A stretch of DNA of 50,633 bases from Octopus sinensis (lineage: Eukaryota): the NCBI RefSeq assembly GCF_006345805.1, contig NW_021834469.1, positions 1-50,633 of the forward strand, read 5' to 3'. A program made the position numbers and the translations under genes. Each line of letters opens with the position of its first letter. Position 1 is the first letter of the stretch. Below, in pieces: positions 7,558 through 44,208 of this stretch. The notes under the pieces are model-generated. The model saw nothing but the letters and a program-made list of their open reading frames with translations. It did not search any database and was not told the origin of the DNA.

Positions 7558-7952
7558 TTTTTCTCTTTTATTCATTTAATTTTTTTCAGTCATCTGACTA
7601 CGGCCATGCTGGAGCAACCCTCCAGTCGAGCAAATCGACCCCGGAACTTATTCCTGTTAAGCCTACTACTTATTCTACCAGTTTCATTTGCCGAACCGCA
7701 AAGTTACGGGGACGTAGAGACATTAAAATCGGTTGTCAAGCGATGGCTGGGGAGGGGCGGACAAACGCAGACGTACAATCATATACATACATATACGAAG
7801 GGCTTCTTTCAGTTTCCGTCAACAAAATCCACTCACAAGGCTTCGGTCGGCCCGAGACTATAGCAGAAGACACTTGCCCAAGGTGCCATGCAGTGGGACT
7901 GAACCCGGAACCATGTGGTTGGTAAGCAACCAGCTTCCCATGCAGCCGCGCC
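7558..7952 (-). mobile_element. SINE family A, near full-length
   Basis: Reverse complement of the family A consensus from head (…gcgcc) to A-rich tail. Confidence 0.92.
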
Positions 7953-8022
7953 TACATCTATATGTATATATACAATATTAAATCTTTGAGTGATATATAT
8001 ATATATATATACATATATACAT

Positions 8023-8110
8023 GAAGCTCCTTCTATAAAATAAATTAATTTACTCTGCTATGTATTGAGTACCTTATTGACTGTGGTTAACCCCGACTCA
8101 ACCCGGGACC
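8023..8110 (+). mobile_element. 88-nt insert between (TA)n tracts, starting with the 3' cleavage-product sequence of the 44108 hammerhead
   Basis: GAAGCTCCTTCTATA at 8023-8037 is identical to 44154-44168; TA repeats on both sides. Confidence 0.55.
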
Positions 8111-8141
<31 letters not shown>

Positions 8142-8384
8142 ATGTACACACACACACATGTATGTATTGTATATGTACCTATATATATATTTGTATTACA
8201 CCAACAGACACCTATTATAATGTATTAAACATACACAAATTTCAAACAATTTCTATATTGACCATTCTTGGTGCAGTGTCCAAAATTTTACTACATCGAT
8301 CCGATAATGTGTGGCTTGTAAAATAGACAGACTTGCGAATATAATTACTTCATTAGTCCTTTATTTGTTGTCTGTAACAAGTTT

Positions 8385-26570: not shown

Positions 26571-26804
26571 ATGTCTCGTGTTAGAGCTTGTTGCAAAGAG
26601 TTGTTGAGGCAGTGTTATATTTTGCGGTTCAAAACGAAGTCCAATGGGCGAACATACACAATTTGACTTAGGCGGTAGTTGCCGACGACTTCGAGGTTTT
26701 CGTGATCATCAGCTTTCATTGACCAAGAGTAACATCTATATAGAAAGATGGTCCACATAACTGTTTGGATAATGATGATGCAAGCAATATTTTTTTATAT
26801 TTTT

Positions 26805-27220
26805 AACTACCCACAAGAGGTTAAACACAAAGGAGACAAACAAGGACAGTCAAACGGATTAAGTCGATTACATCGACCCTAGTGCATAACTGGTACTTAA
26901 TTTATCGACCCCGAAAGGATGAAATGTAAAGTCGAACTCGGCGGATTTTGAACTCAGAACGTAAAGACAGACGAAATACATATTTCTATTTCTTTACTAC
27001 CCACAAGGAGCTAAACACAGAGAGAACAAACAAGAAGAGTCAAACGGATTAAATCGATTATATCGACCCCAGTGCGTAACTGGTACTTAATTTATCGACC
27101 CCGAAAGGATGAAAGGCAAAGTCGACCTCGCCGGAATTTGAACTCAGAACGTAACGGCAGTCGAAATACGGCTACGCATTTCGCCCCGCGTGCTAACGAT
27201 TCTGCCAGCTCCCCGCCGCC
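26805..27220 (-). mobile_element. SINE family B, full copy plus tandem partial copy (long tail)
   Basis: Two consecutive actacccacaag...gcgtaactggtacttaatttatcgaccccgaaaggatgaa...gaactcagaacgtaa units. Confidence 0.9.
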
Positions 27221-27378: not shown

Positions 27379-27389
<11 letters not shown>

Positions 27390-27409
<20 letters not shown>

Positions 27410-28180
27410 AAGCGTATAAGAACACAAACATATATGAGTACACACACACACATACGCATACAAAAATAAGCGTTACTGTCAGACAGTACACATGCATATC
27501 TATAGATCTATAGGTAATAATAATGGTAGATCAATATTTAAAGCTATCGATTTTTCACTTGCAAATAAATACAAAGAAACTTCATGCGCACACACACGCA
27601 TCGCATATATATCTATGATTTATATGTGTATATATCCGTCCCACCCTCCAACCATCCATCCATCCATATATATATATATATATATATACTATATATATAT
27701 ATATATATATATATACTATATATATATATATACATACACATATATGCATTTATATATATGTATGCACACACACACACACCACACACACACACACAGAGAA
27801 GCGTATAAGAACACAAACATATATGAGTACACACACACACATACGCATACAAAAATAAGCGTTACTGTCAGACAGTACACATGCATATCTATAGATCTAT
27901 AGGTAATAATAATGGTAGATCAATATTTAAAGCTATCGATTTTTCACTTGCAAATAAATACAAAGAAACTTCATGCGCACACACACGCATCGCATATATA
28001 TCTATGATTTATATGTGTATATATCCGTCCCACCCTCCAACCATCCATCCATCCATATATATATATATATATATATATACTATATATATACTATATATAT
28101 ATATATATACTATATATATATATATATATATACATACACATATATGCATTTATATATATGTATGCACACACACACACACA
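27390..28180. repeat. ~389-nt direct tandem duplication
   Basis: Identical ORF starts [21 protein letters not shown] at 27492 and 27881; copies differ mainly in microsatellite lengths. Confidence 0.95.
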
Positions 28181-32796: not shown

Positions 32797-32992
32797 GATG
32801 AGGAATTATTTACGTTATTTACATTTGGCGGGTACTTGTCCTCATCTTGTTTGTTGTAAACACAACGTTTCGTCTGATATACCCTCCAGCCTTCATCAGG
32901 TGTCTTGGGGAAATTCCGAACGTTCTGTTAACAACAAACAAGATGAGGACAAATATCCTTCAAATATAAATAATCTAAATAATGTAAATATT
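32797..32992 (-). mobile_element. Penelope-like terminal remnant with inverted partial repeat and minimal hammerhead
   Basis: ~55-nt imperfect inverted arms (cttgtcctcatcttgtttgttg / caacaaacaagatgaggacaa) enclosing an HHR motif. Confidence 0.65.
32858..32905 (-). ncRNA. Minimal type I hammerhead ribozyme
   Basis: Minus strand AGACAC-CUGAUGA-a-GGCUGgaggguauauCAGAC-GAAAC-GUU-GUGUUU; 6-bp helix I, palindromic AACGUU helix III. Confidence 0.7.
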
Positions 32993-44107: not shown

Positions 44108-44160
44108 GAGCTTCCTGAAGATTTCTCTTGAATGAAACAGTTCTAGTCCTGTAGAAGCTC
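44108..44160 (+). ncRNA. Type I hammerhead ribozyme
   Basis: GAGCUUC-CUGAAGA-uUUCucuuGAAu-GAAA-CAGuucuagucCUG-UA-GAAGCUC; perfect 7-bp helix I, ACAG/CUGU helix III, GUA triplet, predicted cut after 44153; helix II closing pair is U-U. Confidence 0.8.
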
Positions 44161-44173
44161 CTTCTATATAATA

Positions 44174-44208
<35 letters not shown>

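Follow-up and report, generated by a model that had tools for sequence, protein, structure and literature searches.

A short octopus Penelope-like copy beginning at a predicted hammerhead cut site, in a family probably copied from uncut, capped RNA

Why should a short insert begin at exactly the base where a hammerhead elsewhere in the same DNA is predicted to cut? The window, the whole stretch of 50,633 nucleotides of repeat-rich DNA from the 2.7-Gb genome of Octopus sinensis analysed here, contains an 88-nt island at 8023 and a hammerhead-like motif at 44108, and a sequence-only reading had proposed that the island is a retrotransposed copy of self-cleaved RNA and a genomic footprint of ribozyme activity in vivo. 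The identity behind this proposal is exact: the 15 nt of 8023-8037 and 44154-44168 form the longest substring common to 8023-8110 and 44108-44200, and BLAST lengthens the match to 20 of 21 nt (8023-8043 against 44154-44174). It is not a chance match, because genome copies of the island and of the hammerhead continue into each other's sequence. The island has at least 40 genome matches, and in 27 of the best 30 the homology continues upstream across the cut into the hammerhead. The hammerhead piece, 44108-44168, has at least 71, of which the best 30 comprise 12 that run through the whole island and 18 that end in (TA)n at about +15 to +25. Throughout, position 0 is the first base after the predicted cut, with minus values upstream and plus values downstream.

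The two pieces do belong to one family: both are short copies from the pseudo-LTR and tail region of a Penelope-like retroelement (PLE), and each comes from a different subfamily. The island is identical at 88 of 88 positions to the 3' end of L151, a copy that carries an ORF, and that it is a retrotransposed copy was borne out, as a stub of the PLE. Its start at the cut site also stood, to the base, but the trailing (TA)n did not prove to be part of the insert: the element's tail passes directly into the ORF, so that the (TA)n following 8110 belongs to the target and is not an RNA tail. Within (TA)n a target-site duplication at 8023 is unreadable. Table 1 gives the coordinates. Just left of the insert lie two SINE-like repeats, at about 7600-7770 and 7797-7945 of the window, which we take to resemble octopus SINEs.

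Table 1. Features of the two short copies, in window coordinates
Feature	Position	Strand	Basis
(TA)n / TACA microsatellite, left flank (target)	7993-8022	.	Sequence
5'-truncated Penelope-like element copy, from predicted cut site (0) to distal 3' end (about +88 to +95)	8023-8110	+	Lone arm, without inverted partner; flanks read
Right-hand (TA)n flank (target); the element itself continues differently after 2 bases	8111-8143	.	TRF; comparison with L174
Extra G that long copies lack; probably a 5' cap copied by reverse transcription	44108	+	Flanked copies against long copies
Type I hammerhead-like motif; predicted cut after A44153	44109-44159	+	Sequence and folds; activity predicted
Stem I; core CUGAAGA	44109-44114 / 44154-44159; 44115-44121	+	Within hammerhead-like motif 44109-44159
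GAAA; stem III; stem II with U.U at 10.1/11.1	44134-44137; 44138-44140 / 44149-44151	+	Within hammerhead-like motif 44109-44159
Second short copy, other subfamily, lying within (TA)n; from putative start site to proximal 3' end (about +15 to +25)	44109-44174	+	60/61 to L174

Walking upstream from 11 long copies led to a 5'-truncated reverse transcriptase (RT)-endonuclease ORF in L151, and a protein search returned at least 150 scored matches, which fall into a group about 67-100% identical and a second family whose identity is about 46% (45-47%). Among 20 regions round long ORFs, L174 and L183 hold the order pseudo-LTR, tail, ORF, long 3' region and pseudo-LTR, with the pseudo-LTRs direct on both sides of the ORF; the two cut sites of L174 are 5,837 nt apart. 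The long copies carry a single ORF with RT and a C-terminal endonuclease-like region, and a microsatellite-rich 3' region. ORFs of natural copies span 652-688 aa and include YRDD and, at the C-terminal end, a VY..YIG region, the arrangement of a single-ORF, endonuclease-bearing (EN+) PLE. Their Atlas neighbours, at 0.95-0.98, bear HTH_animal, GIY-YIG or RVT_1; a Pfam search with one truncated ORF copy found no RT or GIY-YIG family and one sub-threshold unrelated match. Inverted arms occur in L151 and in most short copies, and many copies are head-to-head palindromes. The family has two classes of 3' end, at about +15-26 and +88-96, and the 96 unselected arms described below place 13 of their 3' ends at +25/26, 81 at +92-96 and 2 between.

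Judged by eye from its protein motifs and its likeness to published Hydra sequences, this is a new family of a known clade, the Hydra-clade PLEs. Translations of L175 and L176, read by eye, have DKT, the CxCX5C linker, no CCHH, and CxxC and CxH flanking E and N; in them the GIY-like and YIG-like halves are not separated by a cysteine pair. The single ORF with RT followed by endonuclease is that of the C-terminal EN+ Hydra elements (e.g. Hydra-1_Obim and Hydra-2_Amil), and DKT, the CxCX5C linker, CxxC/CxH, the (TA)n target and a hammerhead in the pseudo-LTR are likewise common to both in the published description of the clade (PMC8557442). The octopus element, in L174, differs in having RWR where the clade has RWK, which the second family has, and its repeat unit of about 5.8 kb exceeds the clade's 'generally <3 kb' (PMC8557442) because of the microsatellite-rich 3' region. 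The element is not the Hydra-1_Obim listed there: protein and ribozyme differ by eye, and motif look-ups in the PMC8557442 supplement returned nothing.

The motif has the CUGANGA core, the GAAA, the NUH and the stems I-III of a type I hammerhead, and A44153 lies in a GUA triplet directly 5' of the 3' strand of stem I. The hammerhead placed at 44108 was thus recovered except for its first base, since G44108 is outside the long element and the motif starts at 44109; the copy agrees with L174 at 60 of 61 positions, G44108 being the sole difference. Hammerheads normally carry G10.1-C11.1 in stem II. Here the 10.1/11.1 position is an unpaired U.U in the common variants. For 44109-44159 the best fold reaches -8.6 kcal/mol and the catalytic fold -7.4, and in none of five copies folded is the latter the minimum-energy fold. 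A 7-bp hairpin spanning the predicted cut site (44151-44168; 8023-8037) competes with stem I, and in the 8023 subfamily it is the minimum-energy fold. The proximal class of 3' ends sits at the base of this hairpin. In two subfamilies (L156, L159, L160, L161) the GAAA box could be tied up in an alternative hairpin of 6 bp, and their best and catalytic folds are 3-7 kcal/mol apart in two copies folded, both altered near the cut. An Rfam scan returned no hammerhead, only low-complexity microRNA look-alikes, among the 150 matches listed of 173 at E<=1.

We used the 24-mer beginning at the cut site as a genome anchor, requiring exact matches; there are 3,605, a total that includes both arms of palindromes. 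The unselected sample consists of 96 arms with this 24-mer at 90 loci, practically all of the first 97 of 100 matches listed, with 5' ends placed against four natural copies. It was drawn from one contig arm, the anchor favours long-tailed arms, and the need for an exact 24-mer depresses the counts of old copies and of starts downstream of 0. The pile-up of 5' ends expected at the GTA/GAAGCTC junction did not appear: no arm ended at -2 to 0 and 21 ended at exactly -45. In all, 35 ends lay beyond -60, 2 at -57/-54, 28 at -46 to -43 (the 21 included), 16 at -42 to -35 and 15 at -34 to -3. The upper 95% bound on starts at the cut is 3% (0/96). Scaled to the genome, the sample corresponds to about 790 arms that end at -45 and to an average of about 18 at each position across -34 to -3 (95% range 10-28), where a genome-wide count found 22 starting at 0; nearer the cut the background is lower, with 4 of the 96 arms over -19 to -3.

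That genome-wide count came from the 42 of the 3,605 matches in which the template A at -1 is missing; in about 99% of copies the sequence continues across the cut site. Point changes with continuing homology explain 18 of the 42 and internal deletions 2. Thirteen join an inverted arm, ending at the 5' border of the hammerhead, to a sense arm through stem-I homology, and one (L224) is another inverted join. Five arms, from four events, belong to palindromes whose two arms each stop no more than 2 nt from 0, and three are clean starts from flanking DNA, the 8023 insert among them. Controls of the same design gave 25 matches at -8 (3 real events and 1 deletion), 8 at +3 (1 real end) and 60 at -14, of which the 30 read held 7 real ends and 1 deletion. 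Real ends at 0 are thus more numerous than at any control position, and clean flank starts number 3 at 0, 1 at -8 and none at +3 or -14. A small local excess of starts at the cut may exist.

TA-flanked starts between -14 and 0 were also gathered, giving 100 rows that a hand count reduced to 56 loci, two duplicates noted. Ten are clean at -2 to 0 and 2 more are ambiguous there, 9 are at -4, and 8 are at -10 to -8, 2 of these with an inverted arm further upstream. Another 12 near 0 retain a remnant of the inverted arm, which has 6 nt in common with the cut region; the structure of 2 more is complex. Positions offering T or TA microhomology gather similar numbers of starts. Any local peak at the cut site is modest at best, and microhomology explains most of it.

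The strongest 5' boundary lies elsewhere. A search with a TA-flank pattern returned 95 reverse-strand matches at the 5' border of the hammerhead against 27 at the cut, and under a strict TATAT flank 21 copies have a G before a -45 start against 2 that start at the cut. Across the 31 TATAT-flanked copies starting at -45, the free base between TATAT and the start is G in 21 (the 44108 copy among them), C in 7, A in 2 and T in 1, in both core variants. The same base was never G in 67 long copies, being T in 57, A in 9 and C in 1; one further copy, L293, which reaches -70, has G at -46. A TATA-like box lies 29 nt upstream of -45 in 62 of these 67 and 27-28 nt upstream in the other 5. In L1, an extra G is the published sign of a capped, full-length insertion (PMC11702581), and the pattern here points to a likely capped transcription start at -45 (A44109), the first base of the ribozyme, read from DNA. 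In the open-access papers searched we found no description of an extra-G start signature for a PLE.

This interpretation needs some care. All 28 arms of the 96-arm sample that end at -46 to -43 have an inverted partner, and a self-complementary AGCT at -45 accounts for part of the -45 peak among palindromes; because of this inflation the argument from the extra G rests on the TA-flanked class. Ten of the 31 TATAT-flanked copies are without the extra G. The same pattern would result if RT added a non-templated C on running off its template, and it would likewise mark a physical end of the RNA. We also considered a splice acceptor at -45/-44, where AG follows pyrimidines in all four subfamilies, and rejected it: short copies keep the AG and have no common upstream exon. 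In D. virilis an intron is reported to end at helix I (PMC4209133). In the second family TA-flanked 5' ends form a cluster upstream of the ribozyme core, about 12 nt away; that family is uninformative on the cap because this cluster falls on TA microhomology with a natural G.

Because ends peak at -45 with an extra G and are few at the cut, the usual template of the family is likely to be uncut, capped RNA, primed internally at (TA)n. RNA polymerase II would start at -45, downstream of the TATA-like box, and the element's endonuclease would nick the (TA)n target. RT would prime internally at either of two sites near the 5' end of the RNA and cross the uncut hammerhead up to the cap, adding the extra G. 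Two such cDNAs joined together, or one folded back, would give palindromes, and cDNAs halted early or trimmed at joining would give stubs such as that at 8023. The 7-bp hairpin over the cut site may hold the ribozyme off. A re-ligated circular template would also read through the cut, but would leave the -45 ends with G unexplained; circular templates have been proposed for PLE hammerheads, whose activity in vitro is described as low (PMC4209133).

It seems probable, given a template that is likely uncut and capped, that 8023-8110 is a short 5'-truncated Penelope-like copy in (TA)n whose start at the cut site is ordinary truncation. The proposal that it is a footprint of ribozyme activity in vivo loses much of its force: the insert could be a rare run-off, and a single copy does not show cutting. 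As nearly all copies cross the cut site and many stop 45 bases upstream, it is weak evidence for cutting in the cell.

The best-placed alternative, which we regard as rather unlikely, is that the hammerhead cuts a few transcripts and that 8023 is an RT run-off from the 5'-OH end of the 3' product, which keeps both priming sites. The geometry at 8023 is exactly right, it is joined by the other two clean flank starts and the four palindromic events among the 42, and L144 is an additional, short-ended clean start. The 13 stem-I joins would also be expected if cap-ended cDNA annealed to cut-ended cDNA, and the anole PLE ribozyme is reported to cut with protein bound, in protein-assisted cleavage (PMC11167929). 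Set against the matched control at -8, however, the excess without the stem-I class is not significant (7 against 3 events, p=0.17; 3 against 1 clean starts, p=0.31), nor is it when L224 is included (8 against 3, about p=0.11 by hand). The unselected arms have no end at the cut, symmetric arm ends occur likewise at -5/-6, -8 and -14, stem II is without its G-C pair, and folding does not favour the active structure.

We consider it quite improbable that the stubs are strong-stop-like cDNAs, with a capped start at -45, an RNA end at the downstream cut and a 45-nt terminal repeat available for a retrovirus-style jump. The cDNA would then jump across this repeat to copy the rest of the element, and run-offs like 8023, from RNA cut at the upstream ribozyme, would be rare by-products. 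Were this true, PLE hammerheads would gain a defined role.

Later deletion, in which an insert once longer or palindromic lost its upstream part by (TA)n slippage or hairpin collapse, is very unlikely. Palindromes are common, inverted and sense arms have a 6-nt direct repeat in common at the cut, collapsed forms with an inverted-arm remnant occur among the 56 TA-flanked loci, and the 42 include the two internal deletions ending at 0. At 8023, however, a T in a TACA-type repeat precedes the insert, with no inverted-arm remnant and no shared TA, and deletion is disfavoured because the insert, 100% identical to other copies, is likely young. A non-LTR retrozyme built of tandem hammerhead monomers was rejected, as the window copies are single stubs and the retrieved loci are stubs, palindromes or ORF-linked.

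Ordinary truncation from an uncut template fits with work on the Poseidon element of Anolis (PAc), where two internal RT start sites 3' of the hammerhead define the tail, the target is AT-rich and uncut RNA is the main template, as we infer here (PMC11167929). In vitro the unprocessed anole RNA was used and no reads began or ended at the cut site (PMC11167929), a result that the genome-wide read-through of the cut supports. PAc belongs to another clade, its two sites are 30-40 nt apart against about 70 nt in the octopus element, and the text of that study drawn on here describes no 5'-end pile-up or extra G (PMC11167929). As in other PLE hammerheads and retrozymes, the predicted octopus ribozyme is type I and lies in a pseudo-LTR, and single or opposite-strand motifs from truncated PLEs are known in thousands (PMC4209133; bioRxiv 10.64898/2026.07.22.740005). 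It differs from those in its full 3-bp stem III with an 8-nt loop, which is not minimal, in its U.U at 10.1/11.1, and in occurring as dispersed stubs and palindromes and not as tandem monomers.

Head-to-head inverted pseudo-LTRs with palindromic junctions, an optional one-arm tail and a putative pseudo-LTR TATA box are shared with the Penelope elements of Adineta vaga, whose palindromes were read as self-priming on an antisense template (PMC3846280). The rotifer elements are of low copy number, unlike the octopus family, and the part of that report drawn on here describes no cap signature (PMC3846280). Unlike the start proposed for the octopus element, the promoter in D. virilis is internal and has no TATA box (PMC3846280, PMC2377424). 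The value of this young, high-copy family is that the in-cell role of PLE hammerheads becomes countable from DNA. Its peak of starts with an extra G marks where a capped transcript probably begins, on the ribozyme's first base, and such family-wide signs of an uncut, likely capped template are more useful than the single copy at 8023, which adds little.

The second Hydra-like family (L184-L193; e.g. L184:3650-6095) has many open frames of 700-766 aa, a hammerhead-like motif of its own that is mismatched at 10.1/11.1, a (TA)n target and two classes of 3' end; a PDB sequence search with its ORF gave two weak unrelated matches. Elsewhere in the window, other CUGANGA...GAAA motifs lie on the reverse strand at 32899, 4381, 4855 and 6445 and resemble the minimal hammerheads of other repeat families. 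The window also holds tandem duplications at 27379-28179 (389 nt, 97% alike) and 26794-27169 (190 nt, 87%).
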